This document shows, in pieces, positions 1 through 41,642 of a stretch of 64,000 nucleotides of DNA. Under the pieces are notes generated by a model, which did not search any database, had not been told where the DNA came from, and saw only the letters and a program-made list of their open reading frames with translations. The position numbers and the translations under genes are program-made. The stretch's first letter is position 1; each line of letters begins with the position of its first letter. This stretch comes from Gammaproteobacteria bacterium. GTDB lineage: Bacteria > Pseudomonadota > Gammaproteobacteria > JBCCGL01. The stretch covers positions 352,001-416,000 of the forward strand of contig OZ255836.1 in assembly GCA_965277715.1 (NCBI GenBank). Reading direction: 5' to 3'.

Positions 1-240
1 AACGCGAAAGAAATTGGACGTAAAGCAGGCAGGATACTCGAATTCCATTTACCTGATCACTGGATATTTAGATCACAAGAAGATCAAGAGGATTACGGTA
101 TAGATGGTGAAATTGAACTTGCTAATGAATCTGACAATGCAACCGGTTTTATCTTTAAAGCTCAAATAAAAGGTCAGAAAGCAGTTTCCATAATCGAAAA
201 TGGAACCATTGCATATTTGGTTCCTCCCCGGTTTGTGTGA
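1..240 (+). pseudogene. 5'-partial DUF4365-like PD-(D/E)xK nuclease-domain gene, truncated by ISL3 insertion at 219
   Basis: Frame 1 reads ...WIFRSQEDQEDYGIDGEIEL...GFIFKAQIKG..., matching the D-x-G-I-D...Q-x-K pattern of DUF4365. The frame runs into the IS inverted repeat and stops at 238-240. Confidence 0.7.
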
Positions 241-1536
241 GGTTATAGTATTTCCTCCCCCTTTGCTATTGAGAGACTCCGGTGCTATCGAGCCTTGAAG
301 AACACTACAGCCAGCTCCTGGGCCTGACAGATGACTGGTCAGTGACATCAGTTGATTTAGACCCTTCAGGGTTAAAAGTATCCATTTCGTTGGCGTTTAG
401 CGGCAACCACGGCCCTTGCTCGCACTGTGGAGAAGTGAGTCCGTTCTATGATCACCGTTCACAAGAGCGATCCTGGAGACACCTGGATATTATGCAGTTT
501 GAAACGCGCCTACACAGTCGCATTCCCCGAGTAAATTGTCTGGAGCATGGTGTTAAAAGTATGATGTTACCCTGGGCAAGCAAGAGCAGTCGTTTTACGT
601 TGTTGTTTGAATTATTTTCCATCAGGGTGTTGCAAGCCTCACGTAGCGTCGAAGAGGCGCGTAAGTTACTGGGACTTAGCTGGAACGCAGTGGAAGCCAT
701 CAAAGCCCGCGCTGTCGAACGGGGACTTTCGCGTCGGGAATTGGTGACAATTGAGTACCTGGGTATTGATGAGAAGTCCCACCGTAAAGGGCATGACTAT
801 GTGACGCTCATCAATGATATCGATGGAGGGCGAGTATTGGATGGAGTGAAAGATCGCACCCAGGCAGCGTGTGAGGAGGCGTTGGAGGTTGCGCTGACGG
901 ATAACCAGCGAGAACAGGTGAAAGCTGTCGCTATTGATATGTGGCCTGCGTTCATTAATGCCGTTGAGGTAAAACTGTCAGACAGTGCGATTGTTCACGA
1001 CCGTTTTCATATTAGCCAACACCTGAATAAGGCGGTGGATCAGGTCCGTCGTGACGAACATAGAGACCTTTTGTCACAGGGTGATACTCGATTGAAAAAG
1101 AGTCGTTATCACTGGTTAAAAAATGAAGAAAATTTGTCTAACAAAGCAGCCGAGCACTTTGAGTCACTCAAGCATGATCAGTTATTGACAGCCCGAGCCT
1201 GGGCGATAAAAGAACTGTTTCGTGATTTTTGGACGTATAAGACAGCGGGTTGGGCAAAGCGTTTCTTTAGCGCATGGTATGCGTGGGCAATTCGGTGCCG
1301 ATTGGACAGCATAAAGAAAGTGGCCAAGATGATAAAAACGCACATGCCGAACATATTGACATGGTTTAAGCACACAATAAGTAATGCCGTGTCAGAGGGT
1401 TTGAATTCAAAAATTCAGACAGTCAAATCGAATGCAAGAGGGTTTCGTTCGTTTGAAAGTTACCGGCGGAGTATTTTGTTTTACTGTGGAAAGCTGGATA
1501 GGGAACCAGTGGCTTCACAATAATCGGGGAAGAACC
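219..1536 (+). mobile_element. ISL3-family insertion sequence, apparently intact
   Basis: Imperfect terminal IRs GGTTCCTCCCCGGTTTGTGTGAGG (from 219) and GGTTCTTCCCCGATTATTGTGAAG (reverse complement, ending 1536) enclose an ISL3 transposase. No matching 8-bp target duplication. Confidence 0.92.
282..1523 (+). CDS. ISL3 family transposase
   Basis: Zn-finger CSHC/C-x2-H, GIDEKS, VAIDMW, DRFH, SNAVSEGLNSKIQ and ARGFRSF motifs. Confidence 0.95.
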   Translation: MLSSLEEHYSQLLGLTDDWSVTSVDLDPSGLKVSISLAFSGNHGPCSHCGEVSPFYDHRSQERSWRHLDIMQFETRLHSRIPRVNCLEHGVKSMMLPWASKSSRFTLLFELFSIRVLQASRSVEEARKLLGLSWNAVEAIKARAVERGLSRRELVTIEYLGIDEKSHRKGHDYVTLINDIDGGRVLDGVKDRTQAACEEALEVALTDNQREQVKAVAIDMWPAFINAVEVKLSDSAIVHDRFHISQHLNKAVDQVRRDEHRDLLSQGDTRLKKSRYHWLKNEENLSNKAAEHFESLKHDQLLTARAWAIKELFRDFWTYKTAGWAKRFFSAWYAWAIRCRLDSIKKVAKMIKTHMPNILTWFKHTISNAVSEGLNSKIQTVKSNARGFRSFESYRRSILFYCGKLDREPVASQ

Positions 1537-1707
1537 GGTTTTTTAGTAGAATCGATGAGTCAAAAAGGCAATGCTGAACCCGCCAACACAAGTTAGGCGG
1601 TGTACTAAGTAGAACAAAGTAACCCTACAGGCGCGTTAAGTGCTTGCACACTATCCAATGAAGCTTGTAAGATACTGATATATAGTGGGAATAAGGACTT
1701 AATAAGT

Positions 1708-2256
1708 ATGTTTACGATAAAAAAAGTATTATTCAGCAGCGCGGTTGTTGTGGCGTTGGTCGGTGTCTACGCACTGGTAACCAGCGGCATTATTACCCAT
1801 AGTAATAATATTCCCGCCACGGCTGTGTTCAAACCGGAAGTCCTGTCCCAGGATTACCTATCGAAGAATCTTCTCCAGAAAACACCTGAACCCACTGTTA
1901 TAGAACAAAGTGCTGATGGACGCGGTGTTATAAAAGGTGCTTTGCCGCCTGAGCTGGTGCCAGTAAAAGCATCGCTTGATCAGCTTGATGCCACTGTCAT
2001 CCAGGCAAAACAAACACTTGAGCAACAAGCCGTCGATGCAGAAGGTTATCAACAGTTTCAGCGTGCTGACAGCACCGTCGATAATATGCAGGCACTGATC
2101 GCCGGTATTATTACCCGTGAAGGTATCGATGCCGCCGCACTCAGCCGCGCCGATCAAGAACAAAACAGGGTCTATCCCAAAACGGCTGAAGCACAGGCGC
2201 TTCTAGACGATCTGGCGAGCACTAAACAAAAACTGGAAAATATCGGTAAACCCTAA
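1708..2256 (+). CDS. Hypothetical membrane-anchored/exported alpha-helical protein upstream of the RHS toxin
   Basis: 182-aa ORF with AAGGA RBS, N-terminal hydrophobic segment, Pro-rich linker and helical Q/A/E-rich C-terminus. Confidence 0.7.
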   Translation: MFTIKKVLFSSAVVVALVGVYALVTSGIITHSNNIPATAVFKPEVLSQDYLSKNLLQKTPEPTVIEQSADGRGVIKGALPPELVPVKASLDQLDATVIQAKQTLEQQAVDAEGYQQFQRADSTVDNMQALIAGIITREGIDAAALSRADQEQNRVYPKTAEAQALLDDLASTKQKLENIGKP

Positions 2257-2348
2257 GATTCGCTCAAGCAACTAAAAATCATCGGTACGCTCGGTTGCGC
2301 AAAGCACCGATACGGTAGCCGGGAAATACAACGACAGGAATACAAGGC

Positions 2349-5300
2349 ATGTATAGTTTTATTAAGATCATAGCTAAAACCCTTCTGACATTCGCCGCAC
2401 TGTTGGTGATACAAATCACCCCATCGCTTGCTGAAGAGCAACTGTTAGTTGGCAAGCTCAGTGGTGATGCTGAAGTGCGACAGGGTATGCTTAGCTACAG
2501 TCTGCCGCTGGAATTACCGGCTGGAGTCCATGATATGCGCCCGGCGTTGTCACTCAATTACCAGCAGGGAGCCAGCAACGGTGTTTTCGGCCTTGGCTTT
2601 GCACTCGGTGGTGTCTCTTCTATTCAGCGCTGCGCGGCGGATGAGGACAACGACGGTTTTCAGGGTGCGATTCGTTTCGATAGCAATGATCGCTATTGTC
2701 TCAACGGCCAGCGATTGATAGTGGTTGCCGGTACTGACGGTGGTAATGGCAGCGAATACCGTCTGCGCTACTCGCCCGGTACCAAGGTCACTGCACATGG
2801 TCAGCAGGCATCGGGGCCTGAGTACTGGGAAGTAAGATCGGCAGATGGTTTTATCCACCGCTATGGGCAAGGTGGCGACAGCATTAAACTTATCGCTGGC
2901 AAAGCCCAGCAGTGGTATCTACGCGAACAGCGTGATCGATTTGACAACACGCTTACCTATACCTATCAGAATCAAAATGGACTAATACAACTAAAGGACA
3001 TAGAGTACTCCAGTTACACCGTCGAGTTCGTCTACCAACAGCGTCCCGATGTGATGACCTCCTATCAGCTCGGTGAGGCTACTACACAGGATAACCGTCT
3101 AAGTCGTTTGCAGGTAAAACGCCAGAGTCAATTGATCTACGAATACCGTTTCGGTTACTCGGATAGCCCTGATGATGCATTCATTCCACCGGGTATAGCA
3201 CGCGACAACAGCCAGACGAAACTGGAGCACGTAGCTCGGTTGCGCGTTCAGGCAGACAGTATCGATGAGCTCATTGAGGAACGACGTAGCGAGCGTGCTC
3301 AGCATACCGATCAACTCGATGAATACAGTGCACAAAGTGCTGATCTGGAAGAAAAAATTCAGAATGCCGAGGATGATGCCACTAATAAACAGAATGCCGC
3401 GACGCTATACCGCAGCAATGCACTGCAATTGCAGCAGGAGGCTATGCAGATATACCAGCAGCACACCACGACGACCACTGAAGCCTACCCAAATCCGGTG
3501 CCTATTTCGGTTGGCGATATTATGTTTTTTGTCCACGAACACACCAACACCACCTTCAATAGTTCTTTCTGGGAAACTGCCCATGAGGATAAACTGGCGC
3601 AGTCAAATAGTTACATGCGATTGGCTAGTAGCCACGAAGATCTCGCACAAGCCAGTACTGAAAGCGCTCAGGGCTATAGCGAGGCGATAGCGGAAATCGA
3701 GGCTGCGCGCACTCTGCCACAACACGCCGCCGAACTGGCCAACGCAAGTATCAGCAAACTCGAAGCCTCGGCTGCCAGCCTGCGCCAACAGGCGGACACC
3801 CTTGAGGATGATGTGGCCACCACTCTCAACCAGCAGGTACAGACCAACACCACTTCGACAGCCAGCGAGTCGCGCTACAGTCGCCTGTCGAAAGTAACGC
3901 GCTGCGATGCGCAAGGCAACTGCCTTGCCCCATTGCAGTTCGACTACCACTCAGAACCTGCGGAAATTAGCGCCCCCAGCGCTATTCAGCAGGTGTTACT
4001 TGCCGCCTCGGATGAACCTCTTACCTATGTTGTTGGCGATCTGAATAAGGATGGTAACAATGACCTCTGCTACTATGAGGATGGTCTGTACTGCTCACTG
4101 AATGCAGGTGACGGTAACTTCTCCACGGCCACTAAGTGGACAACCGCGTTGGATCCGGGTGCTGGCGGTGAAAACTGGACCAACTCCAACGACGATGACC
4201 GTGGCGAAGAAGAAAAACTCATTACCTTGAGTTTGATTGATATCAACCGTGACGCACAACCTGATTATTGCCTGCTCGGTGACAACGGCATTTTCTGTGG
4301 TATCAACGAAAACGGCGAGCGCTTTGTTGATAGCAGTTATAAGGTGAGTGACCTCACTATCGACAATGCCGTACGCTTTATTGATATAGACCGTGATCGG
4401 TGGGTGGATTTTTGCGCCTTTAAAGAGGACGGCCTGTACTGTGCACGCAACCTGGAAGGCACGTCAGTGACTGAGACCGTCAAAGTGCCCGGTACTGATT
4501 TTGGCTTTTTGCTGGAGCATGCCGTCAGCAAAACCACTACTACCATACATAAGACTAAAGGCGATGACCGTATTGAAACCAGCACCACAACCGAAACCAG
4601 CACCACAACCGAAACCAGCAAAACCCCCCAGCCCTCCCGCATGGATGTCAATGGCGATGGCTATGCGGATATCTGTGGTCTGAAACGCGATCCAGATTCA
4701 TCTGATCTGGACTATCAGTGCGCCCTGGGCCACGGTTATGCCAGCGTAGATGGAGTTGAATACCCTGAGTTTGGTAGTCCTGAGGTATGGGCCGCTAGTT
4801 TGCCAGCACTCAGTACCACACAGGAATTTATCGAAACAAGAGTCCTGAACCGCACGTTTCGCCACGCTGATATCAACGCCGATGGTTTGGCTGATCTCTG
4901 CTACCGGCGTGGTGGTGACTATATGTGCCGAATCAACACTGGGGCAGGTTTTAACGCTGAGACGAGTTGGTTTACTTTTAGCGGGGCAGACTGGGCCGAG
5001 AGTGTATGGTTGCCGGTCATTGAGGCCTCAATCAGCCTGACCGACAGGAATGGTGATCAGCTGGCAGATTTCTGCACCCTGGTTGCCGACGAACAAAAAT
5101 GCGCCTATAGCGACGGTGGGGCGTTTACCAATTATGCCGCCAGGATGCCAGTATTGGCCGACTATGAGATTGAAGATAAGAGCGAATCACTCTACCTGCA
5201 CTCGCTAAAAAGACTATTTGGGCTAAAAACCCATATCCACACAGTCATCATGCGTGCCGCCTATGGCCCCTTCAAGCAAGTGTCGGATATTGACGGTGAC

Positions 5301-8300
5301 GGCTACCCGGATGATTGCTACCGTAGCCACGACGGCATTAGCTGTGGTATCGCCGTCTACCAACCACTGGCGCGCTTGGTGTCAGTTACCGACGGCTATG
5401 GTTTGCGCACGGACTTCAACTATTCCAATCTCGCCAGCCCCGCAGTCTACACCCCAGAAAGTGATGCGGTGTCACCACTGCTTGATATCACACCGGCAAC
5501 ACTGGTGATTAACAGCATTGTCTCGGACAACGCTATAGGTGGTAAAAACACGCTGGAATTCCACTACCAGGGCTATAAAACCCACCGTGAAGATGGTGCT
5601 GTTGGTTACCACAAGATAGAGAAACGCAATCTCACCAGCGGCCTCACTACCTTGACCGAGTACAGCACCGATGAGCTGCTAAAAGGCACGCCAGTGCGCG
5701 TGACCCAGCATTCTAACGGCCAGCTGATAAGCGAAACCGCCTCCACTCACGAAGAAATAACCGACCCACTTACCGGTCGGGAGCGCGCTCGTGTTAGCTA
5801 TTCTGTAGAGCACGATTACGCACTCGACGGCAGCCTGATAAAAACCGAGGAAACCCACTACCACGCATACAACGCTTTCGACCAGCTGCTGCGCTTGGAA
5901 ACGGTTACCCGTGGTGCCGATGGTATCGAGTATCGTCAACTTACTGAGAGTAATTACCTCAACGATGAGGCCGAGTGGGTACTGGCCAAACCCTTAACAA
6001 TAGAAGTTACCCACTCTGTGCCAGGTGATACCAAAAAACGCGCCACCGCGTTCAGCTACTACCCCAACGGCGCCCTGCGTACTGAAACCATACAGCCCGG
6101 TCATCCATTGGCCCTGGAAAGTACCTTTAGCTATAACACCGAAGGTAATCTCACACAGACCTTCATCAAGGGCGTTGAGAGTAGCGAAACGCGTACTAGC
6201 AGCCTGGGTGAATACGACGTCGATGGCCGCCCTGGGCTTGCCACTAATGCACTGGGGCATACCAACCGCACGCAGTACCATGCACTGTGCGGGCTGCCGG
6301 TGGCACAAACCGATGCCAATGGCCTGAGTGTCTTGTGGGAGTACGATGGTGCCTGTCGAAAAATCAAGGAAACCCTGCCAGATGGCCAGGTGACCGAGTG
6401 GTTTTACCAGTGGAGTGACGGCGCCGACGCAGGGCTGGATTACCAGTCCCTGGGGCTGCCGCTGGGGGATCGCAGCGTGTATATGATTACCGAGCGCAAC
6501 AACACGACCGGTGCCTGGTCACGCATATACTACGATGCCCTGGATCGCGAAGTGCGCACTATGCACCTGGACGGCAATTACAAATACGTGATTACCGATA
6601 AGGTATACAACCACCGTGGTCAAATTGCCGCTGCCACCCTGCCGTATTTTGAAGGTCATTTCCCCGGTGATAACACTTTCTGGTCGACCATTGAGTATGA
6701 CCAACTGGGCCGACAACTGGCGCAACATATGCCATCCAGTGATGGCCCTATTACCACCCGCTATGAATACCAGGGGCTGACTACTACCGTTATTGAACCC
6801 AATGATTATCGTAAGGTCACGGTAAGCGATGTGCGCGATAACCCTGTTTCCATTGATGAAAATGGTGCGTCCACGGTCAGCTATCAGTACGATGCCTTGG
6901 GTAACGCTATTCAAACCAATAGTAACGGCTATATCACCACGCTGGAGTACGACCAGCTGGGCAATAAAATAGCGATGAGCGACCCCTCGATGGGGCGTTG
7001 GGAATACCGCTACAATGCCTTCGGCGAGCTGATTTACCAAAAGGATGCCAAGGGCCAGGAAGTTGTATTGCAATACGATGTGCTGGGCCGTAAAACGGCC
7101 AGCCAACAGGTCGATGGAAACTACCATTGGCGTTACGACAGTGCCGAAAACGGCCTGGGCCAGCTCAGCGAGCGCGAAGGGCCGGAATCGCTGCGTCGCT
7201 ACACCTATGATGATCTCGCCAGACCAGACAGCGAAACCCTGAATATCGATGGTCGCCGCTTTACCACGCGCAACAGTTACGACCAAGCCAGCCGTATCGA
7301 TAAGGTTGAACATGCCGACGGCGTTGTGCTTGAGCACGACTACACATTGGATGGCAATCTCAAGCGGGTCAGCATCCCCAAAAGCGTTATCTGGGACTAT
7401 GACTACCTACAAATTGAAGATGCCTTTAGAGCGATTCTGCAGCGCATAGCCGGGTTGGAAAGCATCGCCACTGAATATGAAAGTCGAGCCGGTCACTATG
7501 CAGGTCAGCTGGAGAAATTTCGCACACTGGCCAACCAGCTCTACGCACAACAGGCTACCACCTTAACTGAAACCCAGCAGATACAAGCGGGTATCGCCGA
7601 GCTGGAAGCCGCGTTGCGCCACGCTCAGGATCGCGCCAGCAATTATCGCACAACGGCGGACGTAGCCTGGCAGGCCTTCGGCAGCAATTACCTCGAATAC
7701 CAGCGCACTACCAACGGTTACCACCTCTACAGCAATACCGAGTGTACCAATAGTAACTGGAAAAGGCATTGCAAGAATCGCAACAGTTTCCACCAATGGA
7801 TAGAGGCCAACCTGATTCAGGATACCGATAATTGCACTAGCTACGTTCGCAGACTCGGCAAGAGTCAGGATTTTGCGGAGATCACTGTTACCCACTGTGT
7901 ATGGGGGCCAAAATCGCGTATTAATGTATCAGAAGTGTATCTGCAAGCGGCCAGCCAATGGCAGTCAGAAGCGGATGCAATAGCTGAACAACTCGACGAT
8001 TCCAATGCGCAGCTTGCCCATTTTGATGGCGTTGCCGATGAATATGGTGCACTGGCCAGTAACTATATGGCGCTGGCAACGATTTATGCGGACATGGCGC
8101 GCCGTCAAACCGATATGCTTGCGGCTATTAGCACAGAGTTGGAAGATCTGAGAAATGCCGCGCAGGAACTGGAAACAGTATTGGGTGACGATACTCAGGA
8201 TGATAAAACAGTATTGTTATGGGCGTCGACCAGCCGTGATGCGGCGGGCCGTTTGCAGGGCGAATTGTATGGCAATGGCCTGCTGACTCGGCGCGAGTTT

Positions 8301-10349
8301 GATCGTAACACCGGGTGGTTGAACAGCATCAAAACTGGTATCGGCAACGATTTGCTGCGCAACCTGAGCTACAGCTACGACAAACGTTATAACGTCACCA
8401 GCCGACACGATACGCTGGCAGGTGTAAGTGAGCACTACGGCTACGATAGCCTGGATCGCCTGCAAAGCTGGCAATATAGCGATCCACAGCGGCAGTTGGC
8501 GCGCAGCTACAGCTACGATAGCCGAGGCAACATCACCCACAAGAGCGACGCGGGTTCGATGAGTTACGCGGCCAACAATCGTCTGCAAAGTCGGGTAGAC
8601 CCAACCGGAGCTAATCATACCTATCTTTACGACGCCAATGGCAATATGCAGTCGGGTGACGGCAGAAGTTACACCTGGACCAGTTTTAACAAAGTGGCAC
8701 GCGTCAGCCAGTCGGGCCACCAGGTCGATTACCGTTACGACAGCGAACAAAACCGCGTATCGCGTCAGGCTAATGGGCAGACCACCTACTACATCACCCC
8801 CGGTTTGGAGCTTGTGACCGAAACGGATGCCAACGGCGAGGTGATAAACCGTGCCAGACACAATATTTTTGTTGATGGTCAGGTCGTGGCTACCTACGAG
8901 AAGACGCTGGTGGGCACGACCGAAACGCCCGATAAGGTGGCCTATATTCACCGTGACGCCTTGGGTAGCGTCGATACGGTAACCGACAGCCACGGTAATG
9001 TGGTGATGCGCAATCAGTTTGCACCGTATGGTGAAAACCTGAGTGCGAACAAACCAAGCCCGGCGTTTAAACGACACGAGCTACGTGGTTACACCGGGCA
9101 CGAATCGGTAGCGGAAACTGGCTTAATTAATATGAATGCGCGTCTGTATGATCCGGTAATTGGGCGGTTTATCAGTGCCGACAGCGTGGTGCCTGAACCG
9201 GGTATGGGGATGGCGTATAACCGCTATATGTATGTGGTGGGGAATCCGCTGAAGTACAGTGACCCTACCGGGCACTGGTGGCACTTTGTCGTTGCGGCGG
9301 TGCTTTATGTTATCGGGTCCACTACGGATGACCCAACGATTCGCACGGTGAGTTTTGCTGTGGCCAGTGCGTTGTTGATAGCCAATCCTGTATTTTCGGC
9401 AAATACTGTTGTCAGTACGACCATAATAGAACCGGGCCTGGCAATCTCAACGACGTTAGGTGCGACTGGAGCAGCGGTAGCCAATGGTGCTTTGGTGGGG
9501 TTTGTGAACGGCTATTTCGCCAGCGGTGGTGATTTTGGTGCGGCGCTTCAGGGAGGGATTATTGGTGGTGTGAGTGGAGGGGTTACGGATCAAATAGGTC
9601 ATGGTGGCATTTTTACTGGAGAGAATGCGTGGTTTTCGCAGGCGTTGGCGCATGGGGTTTTTCAGGGATTGATTAGTGAAATTCAGGGAGGGGAGTTTCA
9701 GGCGGGGCTTGCCAGTGGGTTTGTTGCGAAGGTTGGGGGGCATTATTTAGAAGGTACAGCGCTGGATAATATAGCGGGTATATCTATTTTGGGTGGTTTG
9801 GCGAGTAAGGCGGCTGGAGGGGATTTTTTGCAGGGGGCAATTCAGGCGGCTTTTGTTTATATGTATAATGACAAGAATGCACAGAAGAGACCGAGTTATT
9901 CGAAAATGGAAAAGAACTATCCTAGTGGTGACGCGGAAGATGTCTTTGGTGCAGTTGGAGGTAAAGTAGCCATCAATGGAAAGATACCAGCTGATCAAGG
10001 TGGTTGGGAGAATTCCTGTACGGTTAGGATTTCCGTTTGCATGAATGCTAGTGGTGCTGATATTCCTTTTATGAAGGGAGAGACAAGTTCAGGGGCAAAT
10101 GGCAAATGGCATATTTATAGGGTTAAAACACTGGAAAGATATTTGACTGATATGTGGGGGGCTCCAGATATATTGAGTACGAATAAGGCCGATTTCTTTG
10201 GACATAAAGGCATAATTATTTTCGATACTATGGGGACTTGGGTCAATGCATCTGGTCATGCGACTCTATGGCATGGTTCAGGGACGGTTGATGGTAGCAA
10301 TTATTTTGATGAGTCTAGTCGAATTATGTTATGGGCTTTACCGGACTAG
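2349..10349 (+). CDS. Secreted SpvB/TcB-TcC-like RHS (YD-repeat) polymorphic toxin with FG-GAP repeats and C-terminal Tae4-like amidase
   Basis: Signal peptide (..PSLA/EE), SpvB-like start (YSLPLELPAG..PALSLNY..NGVFGLGF), seven D-x-N/D-x-DG FG-GAP repeats, many YD repeats, RHS core (RGYTGHE..MNARLYDPVIGRFISAD..NRYMYVVGNPLKYSDPTG), then a toxin tip with NSCTVRIS and SGHATLW. Confidence 0.92.
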   Translation: MYSFIKIIAKTLLTFAALLVIQITPSLAEEQLLVGKLSGDAEVRQGMLSYSLPLELPAGVHDMRPALSLNYQQGASNGVFGLGFALGGVSSIQRCAADEDNDGFQGAIRFDSNDRYCLNGQRLIVVAGTDGGNGSEYRLRYSPGTKVTAHGQQASGPEYWEVRSADGFIHRYGQGGDSIKLIAGKAQQWYLREQRDRFDNTLTYTYQNQNGLIQLKDIEYSSYTVEFVYQQRPDVMTSYQLGEATTQDNRLSRLQVKRQSQLIYEYRFGYSDSPDDAFIPPGIARDNSQTKLEHVARLRVQADSIDELIEERRSERAQHTDQLDEYSAQSADLEEKIQNAEDDATNKQNAATLYRSNALQLQQEAMQIYQQHTTTTTEAYPNPVPISVGDIMFFVHEHTNTTFNSSFWETAHEDKLAQSNSYMRLASSHEDLAQASTESAQGYSEAIAEIEAARTLPQHAAELANASISKLEASAASLRQQADTLEDDVATTLNQQVQTNTTSTASESRYSRLSKVTRCDAQGNCLAPLQFDYHSEPAEISAPSAIQQVLLAASDEPLTYVVGDLNKDGNNDLCYYEDGLYCSLNAGDGNFSTATKWTTALDPGAGGENWTNSNDDDRGEEEKLITLSLIDINRDAQPDYCLLGDNGIFCGINENGERFVDSSYKVSDLTIDNAVRFIDIDRDRWVDFCAFKEDGLYCARNLEGTSVTETVKVPGTDFGFLLEHAVSKTTTTIHKTKGDDRIETSTTTETSTTTETSKTPQPSRMDVNGDGYADICGLKRDPDSSDLDYQCALGHGYASVDGVEYPEFGSPEVWAASLPALSTTQEFIETRVLNRTFRHADINADGLADLCYRRGGDYMCRINTGAGFNAETSWFTFSGADWAESVWLPVIEASISLTDRNGDQLADFCTLVADEQKCAYSDGGAFTNYAARMPVLADYEIEDKSESLYLHSLKRLFGLKTHIHTVIMRAAYGPFKQVSDIDGDGYPDDCYRSHDGISCGIAVYQPLARLVSVTDGYGLRTDFNYSNLASPAVYTPESDAVSPLLDITPATLVINSIVSDNAIGGKNTLEFHYQGYKTHREDGAVGYHKIEKRNLTSGLTTLTEYSTDELLKGTPVRVTQHSNGQLISETASTHEEITDPLTGRERARVSYSVEHDYALDGSLIKTEETHYHAYNAFDQLLRLETVTRGADGIEYRQLTESNYLNDEAEWVLAKPLTIEVTHSVPGDTKKRATAFSYYPNGALRTETIQPGHPLALESTFSYNTEGNLTQTFIKGVESSETRTSSLGEYDVDGRPGLATNALGHTNRTQYHALCGLPVAQTDANGLSVLWEYDGACRKIKETLPDGQVTEWFYQWSDGADAGLDYQSLGLPLGDRSVYMITERNNTTGAWSRIYYDALDREVRTMHLDGNYKYVITDKVYNHRGQIAAATLPYFEGHFPGDNTFWSTIEYDQLGRQLAQHMPSSDGPITTRYEYQGLTTTVIEPNDYRKVTVSDVRDNPVSIDENGASTVSYQYDALGNAIQTNSNGYITTLEYDQLGNKIAMSDPSMGRWEYRYNAFGELIYQKDAKGQEVVLQYDVLGRKTASQQVDGNYHWRYDSAENGLGQLSEREGPESLRRYTYDDLARPDSETLNIDGRRFTTRNSYDQASRIDKVEHADGVVLEHDYTLDGNLKRVSIPKSVIWDYDYLQIEDAFRAILQRIAGLESIATEYESRAGHYAGQLEKFRTLANQLYAQQATTLTETQQIQAGIAELEAALRHAQDRASNYRTTADVAWQAFGSNYLEYQRTTNGYHLYSNTECTNSNWKRHCKNRNSFHQWIEANLIQDTDNCTSYVRRLGKSQDFAEITVTHCVWGPKSRINVSEVYLQAASQWQSEADAIAEQLDDSNAQLAHFDGVADEYGALASNYMALATIYADMARRQTDMLAAISTELEDLRNAAQELETVLGDDTQDDKTVLLWASTSRDAAGRLQGELYGNGLLTRREFDRNTGWLNSIKTGIGNDLLRNLSYSYDKRYNVTSRHDTLAGVSEHYGYDSLDRLQSWQYSDPQRQLARSYSYDSRGNITHKSDAGSMSYAANNRLQSRVDPTGANHTYLYDANGNMQSGDGRSYTWTSFNKVARVSQSGHQVDYRYDSEQNRVSRQANGQTTYYITPGLELVTETDANGEVINRARHNIFVDGQVVATYEKTLVGTTETPDKVAYIHRDALGSVDTVTDSHGNVVMRNQFAPYGENLSANKPSPAFKRHELRGYTGHESVAETGLINMNARLYDPVIGRFISADSVVPEPGMGMAYNRYMYVVGNPLKYSDPTGHWWHFVVAAVLYVIGSTTDDPTIRTVSFAVASALLIANPVFSANTVVSTTIIEPGLAISTTLGATGAAVANGALVGFVNGYFASGGDFGAALQGGIIGGVSGGVTDQIGHGGIFTGENAWFSQALAHGVFQGLISEIQGGEFQAGLASGFVAKVGGHYLEGTALDNIAGISILGGLASKAAGGDFLQGAIQAAFVYMYNDKNAQKRPSYSKMEKNYPSGDAEDVFGAVGGKVAINGKIPADQGGWENSCTVRISVCMNASGADIPFMKGETSSGANGKWHIYRVKTLERYLTDMWGAPDILSTNKADFFGHKGIIIFDTMGTWVNASGHATLWHGSGTVDGSNYFDESSRIMLWALPD
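4575..4620 (+). repeat. 18-bp in-frame tandem repeat (GAAACCAGCACCACAACC, ~2.5 copies; ETSTTT)
   Basis: Directly visible in the sequence. Confidence 0.85.
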
Positions 10350-10354
10350 TAAGT

Positions 10355-11002
10355 ATGGTTTTTTTTAAAGAGGTAAAAAGGAAGCTGATCGCTGTGCTGT
10401 TATTTCTTTTTTTGAGTTCTATAGGCGCTGTGCTCCATGCAGAGGTAGAAAAGGAGTACATTGAAGAGCTTGGGCAGACTCACTATAGCTACAAAAAAGG
10501 TAACTGTTTTTTTAAACTTATTTCTTTTGATTCTAGTTCGATTAATTCTAATATTTTAAATGTACGACGTTCTTGTTCATTTGGAGCTGTAGAGCAAGCG
10601 GGTTTGTTTGGTGTATTATTTTCTGAGATGAAACTGGATGGAAAGGTTGATCTAATTAATAGGATATCTTGGGGGAAAGTATCAAATTATGAAATAATAA
10701 AAAGACTGGCTGTGTCGGCAGTTAATTCATCGAGCTGGCGTGTTATTACTGGAAATAATACAAAGAAAATACTTGCTAAAAATATTCCAGAGGTGGCTAA
10801 TATTTTAAACAACTCATTGGTTTTTCGAGAGTTGGTTAATATATCAAGAGCACTCGGTTTTCAATTAAGTGTGAAATCAACCGAAGGTATTTTGGTTGCT
10901 AGAGTGGAAGAGATTGATGAATTTTCTGAGTTGATTTTACCTAAAGAATCTATAGTGCCATTTTCTGTAAATGTCTGGTTTTCCATTAGTGTTCTTGAAT
11001 AA
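10355..11002 (+). CDS. Putative exported immunity protein for the RHS tip toxin
   Basis: Begins 5 bp after the toxin stop, is AT-rich like the toxin tip, and has a Sec-type signal peptide (KRKLIAVLLFLFLSSIGAVLHA/E). Confidence 0.7.
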   Translation: MVFFKEVKRKLIAVLLFLFLSSIGAVLHAEVEKEYIEELGQTHYSYKKGNCFFKLISFDSSSINSNILNVRRSCSFGAVEQAGLFGVLFSEMKLDGKVDLINRISWGKVSNYEIIKRLAVSAVNSSSWRVITGNNTKKILAKNIPEVANILNNSLVFRELVNISRALGFQLSVKSTEGILVARVEEIDEFSELILPKESIVPFSVNVWFSISVLE

Positions 11003-11172
11003 AAAAATTTAAGCCATTGGCGAAGAAAGATAGGACAGATACTGTATTAATTGTAGCGTGCCATTTTCTGATCGTATAAATTCCCAAATCATTTATCATG
11101 ATGTTTTTCATTTTTCCGACATTTTTGCCACACTCTGATCATAACAAAAAATATTTTTACCATATTAAAACC

Positions 11173-11257
11173 GGTTCCTCCCCGGTTTGTGTGAGGTTAT
11201 AGTATTTCATCCCCCTTTGCTATTGAGAGGCTCCGGTGCTATCGAGCCTTGAAGAAC
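11173..11257 (+). mobile_element. 85-bp left-end remnant of the same ISL3, cut by IS66
   Basis: Matches 219-303 with 2 mismatches and is followed directly by the IS66 IR GTAAGCGCC. Confidence 0.92.
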
Positions 11258-11343
11258 GTAAGCGCCAAAGAATAGGCGTCTACCAAATAGTCTGATCCTC
11301 CTTCACACTGCACCACAGCAATCCAATACCCGCTAGGTGTAAT

Positions 11344-11661
11344 ATGAGTAATAAAGAACGTGCGTTGTACTGGCGCAATCAAATTGAACAATGGCAAGCA
11401 TCCGGTTTGAGTGGTGCGCAGTTTTGCCAGGATAACGGCATCAACTTGAAGCAGTTTTACTATTGGAGCCGTAAATGTTCGCGTAAAACTATTCAAGCAG
11501 TGCAGAGTAACATGCCTGTAGCAGGCTTTACCCAAGTGATGGTGGCTGATAGGCAAAGGGCTGATCCGGGTTTGTGTTTTACGCTGGCCAATGGCTGTGC
11601 CATTTCTGGCATTACCGCCGCTAATGTGACGTTAGTTAGCGCGTTACTGGCGCAGTTATGA
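11344..11661 (+). CDS. tnpA: IS66 accessory protein TnpA
   Basis: W..QIEQWQASGLSGAQFC...FYYW HTH pattern; first ORF of the IS66. Confidence 0.88.
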   Translation: MSNKERALYWRNQIEQWQASGLSGAQFCQDNGINLKQFYYWSRKCSRKTIQAVQSNMPVAGFTQVMVADRQRADPGLCFTLANGCAISGITAANVTLVSALLAQL

Positions 11662-12026
11662 CGGCCCGTTATTTGCGGCCATCGCTCGATGTTCCAAAGG
11701 TGTTTTTATACCGAGAGGCGGTGGACTTTCGTAAGCAAAGCAATGGCCTTGTGGCCATTGTTGAGCGAGAACTTGGCCACAACCTGTTTGATGGTGGCCT
11801 ATATGTGTTCACCAACAGGCACCGCAACAAAATCAAATGTCTGATGTGGGAGGACAACGGTTTTGTACTGTATTACAAAGCCTTGGCCGAAGAGCAATTT
11901 AAGTGGCCTGATCTCGATGAGGAAATCATTTCACTGACCGGCACAAAAATAAATTGGTTGCTTGATGGCTATGATTTAGCCGCAATGAAAGGCCACAAAG
12001 TATTGCATTACGAATCTGTTTTTTAG
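11658..12026 (+). CDS. tnpB: IS66 accessory protein TnpB
   Basis: VDFRK..NGL, YVFTNR..KIKCLMWEDNGFVLYYK.L...FKWP, WLLDG. Confidence 0.93.
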   Translation: MTARYLRPSLDVPKVFLYREAVDFRKQSNGLVAIVERELGHNLFDGGLYVFTNRHRNKIKCLMWEDNGFVLYYKALAEEQFKWPDLDEEIISLTGTKINWLLDGYDLAAMKGHKVLHYESVF

Positions 12027-12093
12027 CCTGCTAAAGGGTGAAAAAGTGTTTGATTTTAATGATCTTTAGACAGCTATTTGGTATTATTACGCG

Positions 12094-13385
12094 ATGGTTT
12101 TGGCATCGGAAATTCAACAAAAACAACGCAATTACACCGGCTTAACGGCTGCTGAATTAGTGACCGTGCTGGCAGAAAAAGAAGCCGAATTAGCGCACCA
12201 TAACCAAATTATTCAACGTCATAAAAACACTATTCGACGTCACACAAACAGCATTAAAAACCGCGATCACTACATTCGTTTGCTGGAAGAACGGTTGCGT
12301 CTTTCCAAGGTTCAGAGGTTCGGTGCTAACAGCGAAAAGCTTGCCTTCCAGATTGACTTGTTTGATGAAGCGGAACTCGAACAAGCCATTGTCGACATTG
12401 ATAGCCAGCTACCGGATGAGTTGCTACCTCAGCCTACGGTCACGAACAAGAAAAAACGTCAACGCGGCTTCTCCAACCACTTACCCCGTGTGCGCGTTGA
12501 GCTGGCCTTAAGCGATGAGGAAAAAGCAGGTGCTACACGTACTTTCTTCGTTAAAGTCAAAGAAGAACTCCAATACATTCCCGCACAACTCAACGTTTTA
12601 GAGTACTGGCAAGAAAAGGCCGTCTTCAGCTACGCAGGTGATGACCACATCATCGCCGCACAACGCCCCATACACCCTTTGGGTAAGTGCTTTGCCAGCA
12701 CGGCCTTGCTCGCCAACATCATGGTGTCCAAATACGCCGATGGGTTGCCCTTGTAGGGTATAACGGGGTGTGCGAGCAGCAAAATCTGACACGTATCGGT
12801 TGCTGGGATCATGTGCGCCGAAAATTCATTGATGCCATTAAAGCCGCCGATAAAGCAAACACGAAAAAACCCCGTGCCTCGAAAGCCGATGTCGCCATCG
12901 GTAAAATCCGCAAGCTCTATCTCATTGAGAAAAAGATACAAGCGCTTGAACCCGCAGAAAAACAAACACTTCGCCAAGCACTCAGCCAACCGGTGTTGGA
13001 AGACTTCAAACAATGGCTGGATAAGCATATTACTAAGGTGGCTAAAAAGTCCCTTACGCGTAACGCCATGGACTATGCACTGAATCAATGGCATACCCTC
13101 ACAGGCTACTGTGATGATGGACGGTTACACATCAGCAACGTGCTGGCTGAAAATGCCATTAGGCCTTTTGCCGTGGGTAGAAAAGCCTGGTTGTTTGCCG
13201 ATTCAACCCGTGGCGCCCATGCCAGTGCCACATGTTACTCATTGATCGAAACGGCCAAAGCTAATGGTCTTGAACCCTATGCGTACATACTGCACGTCCT
13301 TAATCATATCGGTAGTGCCGATACTCTTGAAAAGATAGAGGCCTTGCTACCTTGGCATGTCGTTTTGGACATTACCTTGGAATAA
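12094..13385 (+). pseudogene. tnpC: IS66 transposase TnpC, internal deletion plus frameshift near 12755
   Basis: The N-part ends at KYADGLPL* and the C-part resumes in another frame at GYNGVC..CWDHVRRKF..ISNVLAENAIRPFAVGRKAWLF. The segment carrying the first catalytic Asp (DET motif) is absent. Confidence 0.88.
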
Positions 13386-13528
13386 AGGCTGTGATTTAAG
13401 GGCGCTTACGTTGAATCGTAGCGAGGGCATCTTCAGTGCATTAGGTGCTCACAAAAGCAGTGAAGCTAATACGATCAGAATGTGGTGGAAAAACGACGGT
13501 CTGAGGAAGGAATCGAGGCATCAAATAA

Positions 13529-13605
13529 TGGCGCCCCGAAGAGGATTCGAACCTCTGACCTTCCGCTTAGGAGGCGGACGCTCTATCCAGCTGAGCTACC
13601 GGGGC
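13529..13605 (-). tRNA. tRNA-Arg(CCT)
   Basis: Reverse complement GCCCCGGTAGCTCAGCTGGATAGAGCGTCCGCCT-CCT-AAGCGGAAGGTCAGAGGTTCGAATCCTCTTCGGGGCGCCA folds as a 77-nt cloverleaf with CCA end. Confidence 0.96.
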
Positions 13606-13705
13606 TTTAGGTGTTTGTAGTGTAGACGATCATGGTTTGTGTTGGTACTACTTCAGGTGTTGTGTTGAAGTACGCCTGCTAAACTGACCGTTAGCCCAGT
13701 GATGC

Positions 13706-14563
13706 CTATGCTCGCCGCCAACCAAAACTAACCCGCTCTAATTTTTGCAAATCGCGTTGAGACTGCACGCCGATAAACCCCTGTTGTTGGAATATCGCCC
13801 TAACCGTTCTTCCTTGATTAAAGCTGTGCTCGACGGCCAATACTCCCTTGTTCGCCAGAAAAGGCATGGCGTTGACGACAATATGGCGAATGGCGTCCAG
13901 GCCATCGTGGCCACTAACCAATGCATTGCGCGGTTCATGCATTACGTCACCAGCATCCAGGTGTCTGTCTCCCTGGGCGATATACGGCGGGTTGCTGAGG
14001 ATGATGTCGAAACGATCATCGGCCAGTGCGCTGAACCAATCACTGAGTAAAAAACGCACATTACTGATACCGAGCGACTGGGCATTTTGCCGGGCGATGA
14101 ACAGGGCCTCTGCTGAGTTATCACAGGCGCAGATGTTGGTTTGTGGGCACTCTGTGGCAATGGCCAGTGCAATAGCGCCACTACCTGTGCCGAGATCAAG
14201 AATGCGCCGGGTTGACTGTACGCCCGGTTGTGCCTGTAGGTGGTTTAGCGCAACCGCTACCAATAGCTCGGTTTCCGGGCGTGGGATTAGGGTGTCCTGC
14301 GATACCTGTAGAGGCAGCGACCAGAACTCTTGTTTGCCGATCAGGTAGGCGATTGGCTGGCCTTTTTTGCGCTGCGCAATGAGCGTATCAAAGTGGTGCT
14401 GTTGTTCGGTGTTGAGTGTTTTTTCAGGCCATGCAAACAGGTGGCTGCGCGGTTTATCGAGCACATGCGCAAGCAGAATTTCTGCCTCCAGGCGCGGGTT
14501 GTCGCTGCCGAGTGTGGTAGTCGCCGTTTGCAGGGCAACGGCGATGCAGTGTAAATCAATCAC
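13706..14563 (-). CDS. prmC: Release factor glutamine methyltransferase
   Basis: [19 protein letters not shown] and NPPY motifs; downstream of prfA. Confidence 0.96.
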
Positions 14564-24645: not shown

Positions 24646-24709
24646 TACACAATACAGCGTATTGGTATGGATGTTGCTGCCAACGACTAAGTTTTACCAG
24701 GAGAGCATA

Positions 24710-29083: not shown

Positions 29084-29166
29084 TTTTTATTTTTCTTATG
29101 AGTATTTACTTGAGTTGAAAGCAATGCCAGTTGCGTGAATTATTGATTATAAAGTGAGAGAGCACC

Positions 29167-37097: not shown

Positions 37098-37102
37098 AGT
37101 GT

Positions 37103-41555: not shown

Positions 41556-41642
41556 CTGAACCCGTCAATATAAGGTAGACGGTGTACTAGTCACTGCAAT
41601 ATCCCTGAAAACAGTTTTACTACAGCTTTACTACGGTGTGTA

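Follow-up and report, generated by a model that had tools for sequence, protein, structure and literature searches.

How might a very large RHS toxin reach its target when the genes around it encode no recognizable injector, and is such a locus an undescribed system? We address this for three consecutive genes on the forward strand, P0002, P0001 and P0003 (Table 1), lying in a window of 64 kb (the whole stretch of DNA that was analysed). The original prediction had described this trio, the domains of P0001 and the flanking proteins, and all of them were recovered.

Table 1. Coordinates of the features of the locus within the window
Feature	Position	Strand	Description
85-nt direct repeat, copy 1	219..303	.	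upstream edge of ISL3 transposase region
P0002	1708..2256	+	182 aa, predicted bitopic membrane protein (N-in, single N-terminal TM)
P0001	2349..10349	+	2666 aa, fused TcB/TcC-like RHS polymorphic toxin
Predicted Sec signal peptide	2349..2432	+	aa 1-28, ending ...SLA before EEQ
SpvB domain	2481..2987	+	aa 45-213, Pfam PF03534, E 1.4e-12
ins1	3159..3872	+	aa 271-508, 238 aa, SpvB/propeller junction
FG-GAP / integrin-like beta-propeller	3966..5348	+	aa ~540-1000
RHS/YD-repeat shell	5376..9272	+	aa ~1010-2308, split by ins2
ins2	7401..8213	+	aa 1685-1955, predicted antiparallel coiled-coil hairpin inside RHS shell
RHS-associated core	9021..9275	+	aa 2225-2309, NCBIfam Rhs_assc_core TIGR03696, E 2.6e-18
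Pre-toxin segment	9273..9908	+	aa 2309-2520, glycine/alanine-rich, weakly charged, DUF637 (PT637)-like
Tae4 peptidoglycan amidase toxin domain	10005..10334	+	aa 2553-2662, Pfam PF14113
P0003	10355..11002	+	215 aa, exported (signal-peptide-like) candidate immunity protein
85-nt direct repeat, copy 2	11173..11257	.	98% identical to copy 1

A cocoon of the TcdB/TcaC class with an exchangeable cargo

P0001 is an RHS "cocoon" polymorphic toxin of the TcdB/TcaC class that bears a Sec signal and has its TcB and TcC parts fused. It carries, in this order, a signal peptide, SpvB, an FG-GAP propeller, an RHS shell, a DPTG core end, a glycine-rich pre-toxin and a Tae4 amidase. Its N-terminus (MYSFIKIIAKTLLTFAALLVIQITPSLA followed by EEQ) shows the n/h/c arrangement typical of Sec signal peptides and scores 2.96 in a hydropathy heuristic; such calls, here and for the relatives, come from inspection and this heuristic rather than from a dedicated predictor. 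Homology of the relatives to the SpvB region extends to ~aa 270, the SpvB domain has invariant columns in their alignment, and the DxNGDGxxD repeats of the propeller region (FG-GAP_3 Pfam match at aa 631-688, E 9.7e-9) are conserved across the aligned relatives. The shell matches Pfam RHS_repeat (E 4.3e-17) and the NCBIfam models YD_repeat_2x and RHS_core. Parts of it are 43-50% identical to the closest genomic relative (L002; 42% in the SpvB domain), and the best homologue of the protein, P0004, is 29% identical over 61%. The core closes with NPLKYSDPTG (aa 2299-2308), presumably an aspartyl autoproteolysis site, by analogy with the Tc and Rhs literature; a pattern search matches this motif in 29 of the 34 fused proteins and in none of the other five.

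The cargo beyond the core end (358 aa, a glycine-zipper pre-toxin and then Tae4) is exchangeable. Pairs of relatives are 38-79% identical in the trunk (SpvB, RHS-N, RHS-C) and 4-42% identical in the tail, which could be compared in eight of the nine pairs; tails match PT-HINT, Ntox35, EndoU, Hydrolase_2 or no family. The trio is a real conserved module, with a conserved trunk and differing toxin tails and downstream immunity-like ORFs. An annotated Vibrio campbellii conjugative plasmid also bears it, as a hypothetical 111-aa ORF that fits the HMM of the upstream family (E 1.9e-19), a 2384-aa RHS protein with ins2, and an Imm26-family gene.

That the toxin is of an antibacterial kind, as had been proposed, is borne out by its Tae4 domain (E 7.7e-19, 68.4 bits for a Pfam cutoff of 27), which matches the solved Tae4 structures 4j30, 4hff and 4jur at E 2e-19, with Cys (ENSCTVRIS/QNACPIRMS) and His (SGHATLW/RGHVTLW) aligned. 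The pre-toxin segment contains 16.5% Gly, 14.6% Ala and 9% charged residues, with glycine-zipper motifs (GxxxGxxxG) at 2380 and 2402. Segments ~26-41% identical to it are present in ORFs of 17 loci as well as in the homologues P0005, P0014, P0015, P0018 and P0024. The Pfam DUF637 match of P0001 is below threshold (E 0.12); among the relatives, L061 scores above the cutoff (3.5e-7, 30.6 bits) and L034 reaches 1.9e-4, and L070 matches Gly-zipper_YMGG.

The gene of P0003 is compositionally foreign (GC 0.34, compared with 0.426 for Tae4 and 0.51-0.55, ~0.52, for the trunk) and encodes an exported protein, with a signal-peptide-like N-terminus. Its frame is also open from 10331 (10331-11002, 223 aa), but translation likely starts at M9 (nt 10355), because the 95%-identical homologue P0098 has 215 aa. 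Homologues at 95% and ~70% identity come from metagenomes only, and no match was found in Pfam, NCBIfam or PDB sequences, Tai4 chains included. A role in immunity is suggested by position, since a small ORF starts -40 to +200 nt from the toxin stop in 25 of 28 fused relatives. Export of the candidate is expected for a toxin that acts in the periplasm.

Stalk insertions and the upstream bitopic family

P0001 belongs to a distinct clade of the TcdB/TcaC class, marked by a coiled-coil hairpin in the RHS shell and by an upstream bitopic gene. An alignment of 34 fused relatives, P0001 among them, confirms that the two stalk insertions of the original prediction are real when compared with homologues. 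The hairpin, ins2, is carried by 17 of these proteins (at least 250 aa in 13, a short hairpin of 114-150 aa in four), which all form one clade, and is missing (0-17 aa) from the remaining 17. In P0001 its helices (aa 1684-1788 and 1855-1947) enclose a Cys-rich tip (aa 1789-1854) and show strong 3.5-residue (heptad) periodicity. An AlphaFold2 model of aa 1640-2000 from 16 sequences predicts a helix of 105 residues and another of 93, with RHS strands on either side, at low confidence (mean pLDDT 59.7, below 50 at the tip); a PDB fold search returned generic coiled-coil hairpins, none of them at E<=0.001. Vibrio pairs are 44-81% identical in the stalk versus 38-74% in the shell. Within subgroups the stalk therefore evolves about as fast as the shell, a pattern unlike that of a receptor-binding tip under diversifying selection.

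The other insertion, ins1, occurs only in P0001, and the site spans 5-8 residues in each of the other 33 fused relatives. Its boundaries were taken from HSPs (for L002, q270 aligns with s268 and q510 with s276). A putative helix (~285-372), a small tip (373-412, motif PVPISVGDIMFFV) and a second putative helix (~413-505) follow each other, the first helix running for 88 aa without Pro or Gly, with a hydrophobic period of 3.5 residues. The insertion is weakly similar to the ins2-module profiles (E 6e-4, 13.9 bits), and the tip motif is 75% identical over 12 aa to P0004.

In P0002, K5-K6 precede a single hydrophobic N-terminal helix, and the rest of the protein, predicted to be periplasmic, is rich in helices. 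It matches no Pfam or NCBIfam family, and an exhaustive phmmer search found only P0102 (40% identity, 3.7e-14) and P0104 (32%, 8e-4). Alone, P0002 is not recognized as a member of the family encoded upstream of the relatives (HMM E>10, hhalign 9.7%). Yet the profile of these three proteins aligns with that of the 15 upstream ORFs of relatives (hhalign 91.3%, E 9.4e-7, 81 columns), and P0104 links to the ORF upstream of L001 (1e-6). Judging from these profiles, P0002 is a remote homologue of a fast-evolving family directly upstream of stalk-bearing SpvB-RHS toxins, and gene neighbourhoods uphold the expected conservation of the upstream ORF. The family lies directly 5' of the toxin in 14 of the 15 evaluable members of the stalk clade and in none of the 16 evaluable non-members. 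Among individual loci, L024 has a short stalk and no upstream ORF, and L006 has none in its 229 upstream bases. The co-occurrence of ins2 and the upstream ORF is not independent statistical evidence of coupling, because it amounts to one event in a single clade.

Export and delivery

We consider it fairly probable that P0001 is a Sec-exported cocoon of the TcdB/TcaC class with Tae4 as cargo, P0003 as immunity protein, and a stalk cooperating with the P0002 family at the envelope. P0001 would cross the inner membrane by Sec and form a closed shell that encloses its autocleaved C-terminal fragment of 358 aa, and P0003 would neutralize Tae4 in the periplasm of the producer. The P0002 family may work with the stalk, the simplest arrangement being a bundle of the family's C-terminal helices and the hairpin, and this pairing could keep the shell at the envelope, orient it there, or pass it on to an export system such as, possibly, the general T2SS. 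Subgroup-specific stalk tips might then contact the target cell, and the DUF637-like glycine-rich segment might help Tae4 across the target outer membrane to the peptidoglycan. The stalks may in this way replace a receptor-binding or translocation partner, with P0002 as an "anchor", as had been suggested.

The upstream bitopic protein could instead be a release or export factor (a holin- or spanin-like lysis helper, or a T2SS adaptor) or a second protective factor, the stalk serving separately, e.g. in oligomerization or shell gating. The layout of P0002, an N-terminal TM followed by periplasmic helices, is one that we take to resemble i-spanins and GspM, and this likeness speaks for such a role, but the Pfam T2SSM match reaches only E 0.19. 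T2SS genes adjoin 7 of 75 loci of relatives, mostly outside the stalk clade, and the Tc toxins of Yersinia entomophaga are reported to leave the cell through a lysis-type T10SS (PMC10847048). Against this, there is no lipobox ORF within or beside P0002, and hence no o-spanin partner, no holin or endolysin family occurs among the 59 window ORFs scanned, and no Pfam family recurs in the 15 upstream ORFs of relatives. The upstream family also tracks the stalk clade, not the whole signal-peptide class. We regard a release factor as unlikely, and favor cooperation of P0002 with the stalk.

It is much less probable that P0001 depends for delivery on a T6SS or TcA-like translocator whose genes lie elsewhere in the genome, its self-contained look being an artefact of viewing 64 kb of a contig of ~4.29 Mb. 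The cytoplasm is where T6SS and Tc components are assembled, whereas the cleavable-looking Sec signal would send P0001 to the periplasm, and its N-terminus has no PAAR or prePAAR. Tae4 is by name a T6SS effector family, and one source records tcC and rhs genes that lie as orphans at a distance from their machinery (PMC7861908). However, Pfam found no PAAR, VgrG, Hcp, Eag/DUF1795 or TcA family among the 59 ORFs of the window, and the homologues do not sit beside such machinery. None of 243 neighbouring ORFs scanned belongs to TcA or T6SS (0/116 of at least 450 aa in 75 loci, 0/127 of 100-449 aa in 16 stalk-clade loci), and the true TcB homologues P0088 and P0091 lack signal peptides.

The borders of the locus are rich in insertion sequences. 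The ISL3 transposase ORF (282-1523, Pfam) begins within the first repeat copy, and an IS66-family element (11344-13385; orf1, TnpB and a split transposase, by Pfam) directly follows the second, which matches no Rfam family. The least probable reading, that the module is a decaying, non-functional passenger of this IS-rich island, could draw on the ISL3 and IS66 flanks, the bracketing repeat, the IS66 transposase split in two ORFs and the fragmentation into several ORFs of L001, its closest relative in a tubeworm endosymbiont, but is contradicted by the uninterrupted 8-kb frame with all domains kept, the conserved core motif and Tae4 Cys and His, and the intact frames of P0002 and P0003, with close homologues elsewhere.

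Relation to known toxin systems

The partnerless state is not special to this locus: signal-peptide-like N-termini occur in 31 of 34 fused relatives (hydropathy heuristic), and Zhang, de Souza, Anantharaman, Iyer and Aravind (2012, Biol Direct) catalogued a "TcdB/TcaC" trafficking class of polymorphic toxins. The passages of that paper on the class describe, as in P0001, a signal peptide, SpvB, an integrin-like beta-propeller, RHS, a variable C-terminal toxin and an adjacent immunity gene; they describe neither a coiled-coil insertion in the shell nor a conserved upstream bitopic gene, and they assign DUF637/PT637 to T5SS as a pre-toxin domain rather than to this class (PMC3482391). For these reasons the claim of an undescribed system narrows to the stalk insertions and the upstream partner, the base architecture being known. 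The ins2 hairpin of one clade, the upstream bitopic family and ins1 of P0001 alone look undescribed, and the module, in which an exported shell with its cell-wall-cutting enzyme is accompanied by an antidote and a small membrane protein, would be an undescribed branch of a known toxin class.

Tc TcB-TcC cocoons (e.g. TcdB2-TccC3, YenB-YenC, and VHVP-1/VHVP-2 of shrimp-pathogenic Vibrio parahaemolyticus) share with P0001 the SpvB, propeller, RHS shell and aspartyl-protease-type core end, and a cargo of comparable size (~200-400 aa versus 358 aa). They have no signal peptide and attach to a TcA injector whose gene is close by (the section consulted of PMC10714935 gives VHVP-1 as a 2544-aa TcA), whereas P0001 bears a signal peptide and stalk insertions and carries an antibacterial cargo paired with an immunity gene, and there is no TcA in the window or beside its relatives. 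T6SS-associated Rhs effectors such as RhsA, Tse15 and Tre23-Rhs also combine an RHS cocoon, an autocleaved antibacterial toxin and a downstream immunity gene, but use PAAR/prePAAR or clade domains with VgrG and Eag/Tec partners, and lack a signal peptide, SpvB and propeller; PAAR, VgrG and Eag genes were not found among the window or clade-locus ORFs scanned.

The best functional analogy for a shell with external appendages and a hydrophobic cargo is mosquito SGS1. In the part of its cryo-EM description that we draw on, it is a TcA-less Tc-like Rhs/YD shell with external receptor domains, hiding ~230 hydrophobic C-terminal residues behind an aspartyl-protease site (PMC9935623). It differs in being eukaryotic (of bacterial origin), in its lectin/CBM appendages without coiled-coil stalks, and in lacking a Tae4-type enzyme toxin, an immunity gene and a bitopic partner. 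CdiA (T5SS) likewise places a pre-toxin (PT/DUF637) before a swappable toxin and a receptor-binding module at the tip of an elongated structure, and its toxin goes first to the target periplasm, according to excerpts of one account (PMC9086364). CdiA has no RHS shell, however, but forms a beta-helical filament that CdiB exports, and the DUF637 match of P0001 is sub-threshold.

Finally, Tae4 proteins have otherwise been known as effectors of the T6SS. The Tae4-Tai4 pairs of Salmonella Typhimurium and Enterobacter cloacae share the Tae4 family of P0001, with catalytic Cys and His aligned. P0003 resembles neither Tai4 nor any solved chain in sequence, and Tae4, a free T6SS cargo in those pairs, is fused in P0001 behind a 2,550-aa carrier.

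Class, cargo and relatives of the toxin

P0001 is a real, intact RHS polymorphic toxin of the TcdB/TcaC class of Zhang et al. 2012 (PMC3482391), with a Tae4 cargo. It is encoded in a trio of same-strand ORFs with an insertion sequence on either side, together with an upstream bitopic protein (P0002) and a candidate immunity protein (P0003). It has the features of the class, namely a signal peptide, SpvB and propeller, an RHS core and a variable toxin. By inspection and by a positive hydropathy heuristic, its N-terminus has the n/h/c layout of a Sec signal peptide (SLA|EE), and the same heuristic gave signal-peptide-like N-termini in 31 of 34 fused relatives. DxNGDG repeats are conserved in the propeller region of the alignment, a region that in P0001 also carries a Thr-rich linker encoded by short tandem repeats. 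The RHS core closes with NPLKYSDPTG at aa 2308, so that the fragment presumed to be released comprises aa 2309-2666 (358 aa). The C-terminus aligns with the solved Tae4 structures 4j30, 4hff and 4jur at E 2e-19, and both the Cys and the His column are conserved in this alignment.

Features of the trio and its surroundings (nucleotide positions in the window; aa positions in P0001)
Feature	Position	Strand	Remarks
85-nt direct repeat, copy 1	219-303		98% identical to copy 2
ISL3 transposase ORF	282-1523
P0002 ORF	1708-2256	+	182 aa
P0001 ORF	2349-10349	+	2666 aa
P0003 ORF	10331/10355-11002	+	two possible starts
SpvB domain	P0001 aa 45-213	+	Pfam, E 1.4e-12
ins1	P0001 aa 271-508
FG-GAP_3, integrin-like beta-propeller after SpvB	P0001	+	Pfam, E 9.7e-9
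'ETSTTT' linker in propeller region	4575-4628		three tandem 18-nt units (GAAACCAGCACCACAACC)
RHS_repeat	P0001	+	Pfam, E 4.3e-17
ins2	P0001 aa 1685-1955		271 aa
RHS-associated core	P0001 aa 2225-2309	+	NCBIfam TIGR03696
Tae4 domain	P0001 aa 2553-2662	+	Pfam, 68.4 bits, cutoff 27
85-nt direct repeat, copy 2	11173-11257
IS66-family element	11344-13385		orf1 and TnpB
LZ_Tnp_IS66 ORF	12094-12756
DDE_Tnp_IS66 ORF	12687-13385
tRNA-Arg(CCU)	13529-13605	-
Probable large adhesin pair	24605-29691		1492 aa and 174 aa
Putative quaternary-amine catabolic cluster	35547-47887

The first ~212 residues of the 358-aa fragment comprise 16.5% Gly, 14.6% Ala and 9% charged residues, with GxxxGxxxG motifs. Such a glycine-rich segment behind the core is common to ORFs of 17 loci of relatives (~26-41% identity) and is also found in several database homologues. 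The match of P0001 to DUF637 (PF04830) is insignificant (12.6 bits for a cutoff of 26.6, E 0.12); the segment of locus L061, 35% identical to that of P0001, matches DUF637 above threshold at 30.6 bits, and that of L070 matches Pfam Gly-zipper_YMGG. Sections of Zhang et al. (PMC3482391) treat DUF637 as PT637, a pre-toxin domain of CdiA-type toxins, and sections of a study of CdiA (PMC9086364) have the pre-toxin region entering the target periplasm together with the toxin.

The trio is conserved with swapped toxin tips, a point that the original prediction proposed to check. In eight pairs of relatives the trunk (SpvB, RHS-N and RHS-C) showed 38-79% identity against 4-42% in the tail (nine pairs were compared, one having no tail to compare), and the tail families vary: those of 26 relatives are PT-HINT, Ntox35, weak EndoU, Hydrolase_2 or nothing known. 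A small ORF starts between -40 and +200 nt from the toxin stop in 25 of 28 fused loci, and these ORFs look variously cytoplasmic, membrane-bound or exported. P0003 looks exported, with a signal-peptide-like N-terminus, and starts 6 nt past the P0001 stop; its true start is probably M9, at nt 10355, because its 95%-identical homologue P0098 has 215 aa. Whereas Tae4 effectors pair with immunity proteins of the Tai4 family, P0003 matched neither that family nor any other in Pfam or NCBIfam, and no PDB chain at E<=10. GC content falls from 0.51-0.55 in the trunk to 0.426 in the linker and Tae4 and 0.34 in P0003, the pattern that exchange of a toxin/immunity cassette would be expected to leave.

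The base architecture of signal peptide, SpvB, propeller and RHS is already known and common. A search of 5.8 billion proteins listed 94 relatives of P0001, among which the best match (P0004) has 29% identity over 61%; many of those listed have 2000-2500 aa with SpvB, FG-GAP, TcdB_midN and RHS, and most start with a signal peptide. P0002 matched its own database entry; a self match of P0001 was absent from the matches listed, and the source annotation may lack this ORF. Toxins of this architecture are very common in species-representative genomes, where at least 600 stretches matched the SpvB-domain alignment (A1) and at least 595 were confirmed as relatives. The best 80 of these matches represent 75 distinct loci, with the source genome outside them; among them the closest are the tubeworm endosymbiont loci L001 and L002 (42%), followed by Vibrio, Grimontia, Hahella, Parendozoicomonas, Sedimenticola and Thiodubiliella. 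The toxin gene of the Lamellibrachia barhami endosymbiont (L001, 9995-17431) is split into at least four ORFs, and that of the L. anaximandri endosymbiont (L002) is intact. A match on a Glaciecola plasmid, to a larger YD protein extended at its N-terminus, was set aside as uninformative, and VHVP-1/2 of V. parahaemolyticus were ruled out as characterised relatives because both are classical TcA/TcB.

Stalk insertions and the upstream membrane protein

An alignment of P0001 and P0004 with 32 fused ORFs from the loci, 34 proteins in all, shows that the two insertions of P0001 differ in their distribution. The first, ins1, is present in P0001 only, its counterpart being 5-8 residues long in all 33 other proteins. 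The second, ins2, a coiled-coil hairpin stalk within the RHS shell, is found in 17 of the 34 and missing (0-17 aa) in the other 17. It has at least 250 aa in 13 proteins (P0001, P0004, L002, L006, L010, L026, L030, L038, L044, L046, L061, L065 and L067) and a short version of 114-150 aa in four (L015, L024, L033 and L070). All 17 proteins with ins2 fall into a single clade, in which L002 is the sister of P0001 (FastTree on 1385 well-occupied columns, topology only), and members of this clade come from Vibrio, Grimontia, Hahella, Sedimenticola, chemosynthetic symbionts and a conjugative Vibrio plasmid. P0001 stands out as the sole protein with a second stalk among the 34 aligned.

In an AlphaFold2 model of aa 1640-2000, RHS strands at both ends enclose one helix of 105 residues and a second of 93, joined by a tip of poor prediction quality that includes a beta-hairpin; the mean pLDDT is 59.7, from 16 aligned sequences, so that only the overall hairpin topology of ins2 is credible. 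A hydrophobic period of 3.5 residues dominates both ins2 helices and the first ins1 helix. Searching PDB folds with the ins2 model gave no match at E<=0.001 and retrieved generic coiled-coil hairpins only. The tips differ between subgroups: the ins2 tip is Cys-rich in P0001 and L002, carries duplicated 'VWVPIQVGDITTF'-like motifs in P0004 and L006 and reads 'KQWCNAQGECYL...' in the Vibrio group, and the ins1 tip ('PVPISVGDIMFFV') resembles the motif of P0004 and L006. Stalk and shell are equally conserved within subgroups; in the pair of P0001 and L002 only, the stalk is clearly more diverged (21-25% identity versus 43-50% in SpvB and the RHS shell). The profiles of ins1 and of ins2-type modules match weakly (E 6e-4, 13.9 bits, coiled-coil bias likely), and no meaningful repeats flank ins1. 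That ins1 arose as a paralogous copy of an ins2-type module is an unproven possibility.

The upstream ORF is conserved as well, in line with the original prediction. In relatives, a same-strand ORF of 110-200 aa with an N-terminal TM helix lies directly 5' of the toxin gene, and 15 such ORFs form a loose family (A2) with a TM segment, a low-complexity linker, an [FL]PxPxxxL motif and C-terminal amphipathic helices, for which Pfam gave no recurrent family. Run against 6012 ORFs, the HMM of this family recovered its 15 training members and a partial ORF of L002, and nothing else below E 0.05. The ORF is present in 14 of the 15 stalk-bearing proteins that could be evaluated (P0004 lacks a genomic context, and the 229 bases available upstream of L006 contain no ORF), being absent from the short-stalk locus L024, and in none of the 16 evaluable proteins without ins2 (L017, at a contig edge, was left out), where L054 reached E 0.15 with the HMM. 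Three loci whose toxin gene is broken or truncated, L001, L004 and L055, have it too. An independent, annotated case is a conjugative plasmid of Vibrio campbellii, which encodes a 'hypothetical' 111-aa ORF (family HMM E 1.9e-19), an RHS protein of 2384 aa with ins2 (56% to L044) and an Imm26-family gene. As the stalk and its partner share a single origin, their co-occurrence counts as one event, and their coupling is argued from joint retention over deep divergence, not from statistics.

In P0002 itself, which stops 92 nt 5' of P0001, two lysines precede a single hydrophobic helix at the N-terminus. P0002 has no Pfam or NCBIfam family (T2SSM, at E 0.19, is insignificant), and on its own it failed to match the 15-ORF family (HMM E>10; hhalign 9.7%); BLASTP with P0002 and P0003 against the ORFs of the 75 loci gave no match, and the ESM Atlas no usable one. 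An exhaustive phmmer search of 1.84 billion representatives retrieved P0102 (3.7e-14) and P0104 (8e-4), and the homology became visible only once these two were added to the profile, which then aligned with the family profile over 81 columns (hhalign 91.3%, E 9.4e-7). P0104 also matches the upstream ORF of L001 directly (E 1e-6). On these grounds we count P0002 as a distant member of the family. In the PDB, the P0002-family profile had four weak matches, none meaningful (best E 0.029). Rather than binding the stalk, P0002 could be a release or export factor. The idea of a spanin was set aside, as neither a lipobox ORF nor a spanin partner was found.

Our results thus divide the claim that this system is undescribed. 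It fails for the base architecture, catalogued in 2012 in parts of Zhang et al. (PMC3482391). It holds for the clade combining the stalk with a dedicated bitopic partner, which is apparently undescribed: we found no description of the stalk insertion or of the upstream partner in the literature searched, including few subscription-journal papers.

Arrays of ~110-aa secreted two-cysteine ORFs adjoin stalk-clade toxin genes in Vibrio, Parendozoicomonas and Hahella (L010 16575-18227; L015 5262-8824; L044 17986-20642; L046 18368-20385; L076 5251-5607), with none in the window; one of these ORFs matches DUF5992 strongly (E 1e-33) and three of 25 weakly.

Neighbouring genes and a possible mode of delivery

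The original prediction described a toxin with neither a TcA nor a T6SS partner in the window, and this is what we found. In the window, 64 kb of a ~4.29 Mb contig, none of 59 ORFs (11 + 34 + 14) matched the TcA, VgrG, PAAR, Hcp or Eag families in Pfam, and the remaining genes are housekeeping ones (prmC, prfA, hemA, lolB, prs, pth, pnp, ftsK, lolA, serS and others). Neither do homologues consistently lie next to such genes: TcA and T6SS families were absent from 116 flanking ORFs of at least 450 aa at the 75 loci from the best 80 matches and from 127 ORFs of 100-449 aa at 16 stalk-clade loci, the latter count omitting 15 upstream-family ORFs that had a separate Pfam scan. No TcA gene was thus found among 243 ORFs beside relatives, and VgrG, Eag (DUF1795), Tec and Hcp genes were missing from the window ORFs and the 16 stalk-clade loci. 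An unlikely alternative is that the delivery machinery is encoded elsewhere in the source genome.

These observations set P0001 apart from Tc toxin complexes and T6SS Rhs effectors. Tc (ABC) toxin loci include the gene of the TcA injector, unlike this window and the neighbourhoods of the relatives, and TcB/TcC assemble in the cytoplasm without a signal peptide (the classical TcB-like matches P0088 and P0091 have none), whereas P0001 has a signal-peptide-like N-terminus. T6SS Rhs effectors carry a PAAR/prePAAR or VgrG-interacting N-terminal domain; P0001, in which Pfam detects no PAAR family, has a signal peptide and SpvB instead. T2SS genes (secretin, GspE, GspF) adjoin the toxin genes of L016, L025, L029, L037, L048 and L064 and also lie near L061, hence in 7 of the 75 loci from the best 80 matches, and these seven mostly have separate genes for the TcB-like and RHS parts. 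Only these gene neighbourhoods, in other branches of the family, hint that the general T2SS has a part in release. Tandem arrays of two to six signal-peptide TcB-like genes (~700-1000 aa each) occur at L005, L014, L023 and L037 (Polaromonas) and at L019 and L020, and TcB-like arrays lie beside T2SS gene clusters in several cases (L016, L025, L029, L037, L048, L064).

The toxin most probably works in the following way. P0001 would be exported by Sec and autocleaved, and its 358-aa fragment would stay inside the shell, as the structures of Tc and Rhs proteins and of mosquito SGS1 suggest by analogy; sections of its description (PMC9935623) present SGS1 as a TcA-less shell with external receptor domains and ~230 hydrophobic residues hidden inside. 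P0003 would give immunity in the periplasm. The bitopic partner P0002 would cooperate with the stalk, the stalk tips may touch the target cell, and the glycine-zipper segment could assist passage through the outer membrane of the target, bringing Tae4 to the peptidoglycan. A bolder reading, which we consider unlikely, makes the stalk clade a self-contained machine that delivers antibacterial toxins without TcA or T6SS. Here the bitopic partner would grip the coiled-coil stalk after Sec export and hold the loaded RHS shell within the envelope or at its surface. The stalk tips, of which P0001 has two different ones, would recognise a surface structure on the target cell, and the released glycine-zipper (DUF637-like) segment would itself form the path of the toxin through the target outer membrane. 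If true, interbacterial toxin delivery would have a further, new mode, and the working of the many signal-peptide TcB/TcC-like RHS proteins would be explained. The stalk and the small membrane partner offer two tractable handles on producer exit and target entry without TcA or T6SS, and because the compartment targeted by Tae4 is known (the periplasm), the crossing of the outer membrane can be tested directly with P0001.

A mobile, IS-rich setting

The two copies of the 85-nt direct repeat, at a distance of 10,954 nt, enclose the ISL3 transposase and the trio. The transposase ORF begins within the first copy, and the second is directly followed by an IS66-type end (GTAAGCG...). The repeat, which has no Rfam match, could be an insertion hot-spot element for IS or an island boundary. 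A tRNA-Arg gene, the only Rfam match in window positions 1-14000, lies just past IS66 and separates the island from prmC; islands often integrate at tRNA genes. The trio thus sits in a mobile, IS-rich spot. That the island is decaying is an unlikely alternative.

A scan for promoters and terminators gave counts no higher than chance. The IS66 transposase is split into two overlapping ORFs and is probably frameshifted. Further along the window, a secreted-type protein with PKD, Big_9, cadherin, Calx-beta and Lcl_C domains is followed by a smaller Lcl_C protein, probably as a large adhesin pair. A last group of genes, encoding an MTTB-family methyltransferase, a DAO/GCV_T oxidase, an OpuAC-type betaine ABC transporter and PhyH and fatty-acid-hydroxylase-like proteins, looks like a cluster for the catabolism of quaternary amines of the betaine/carnitine type.
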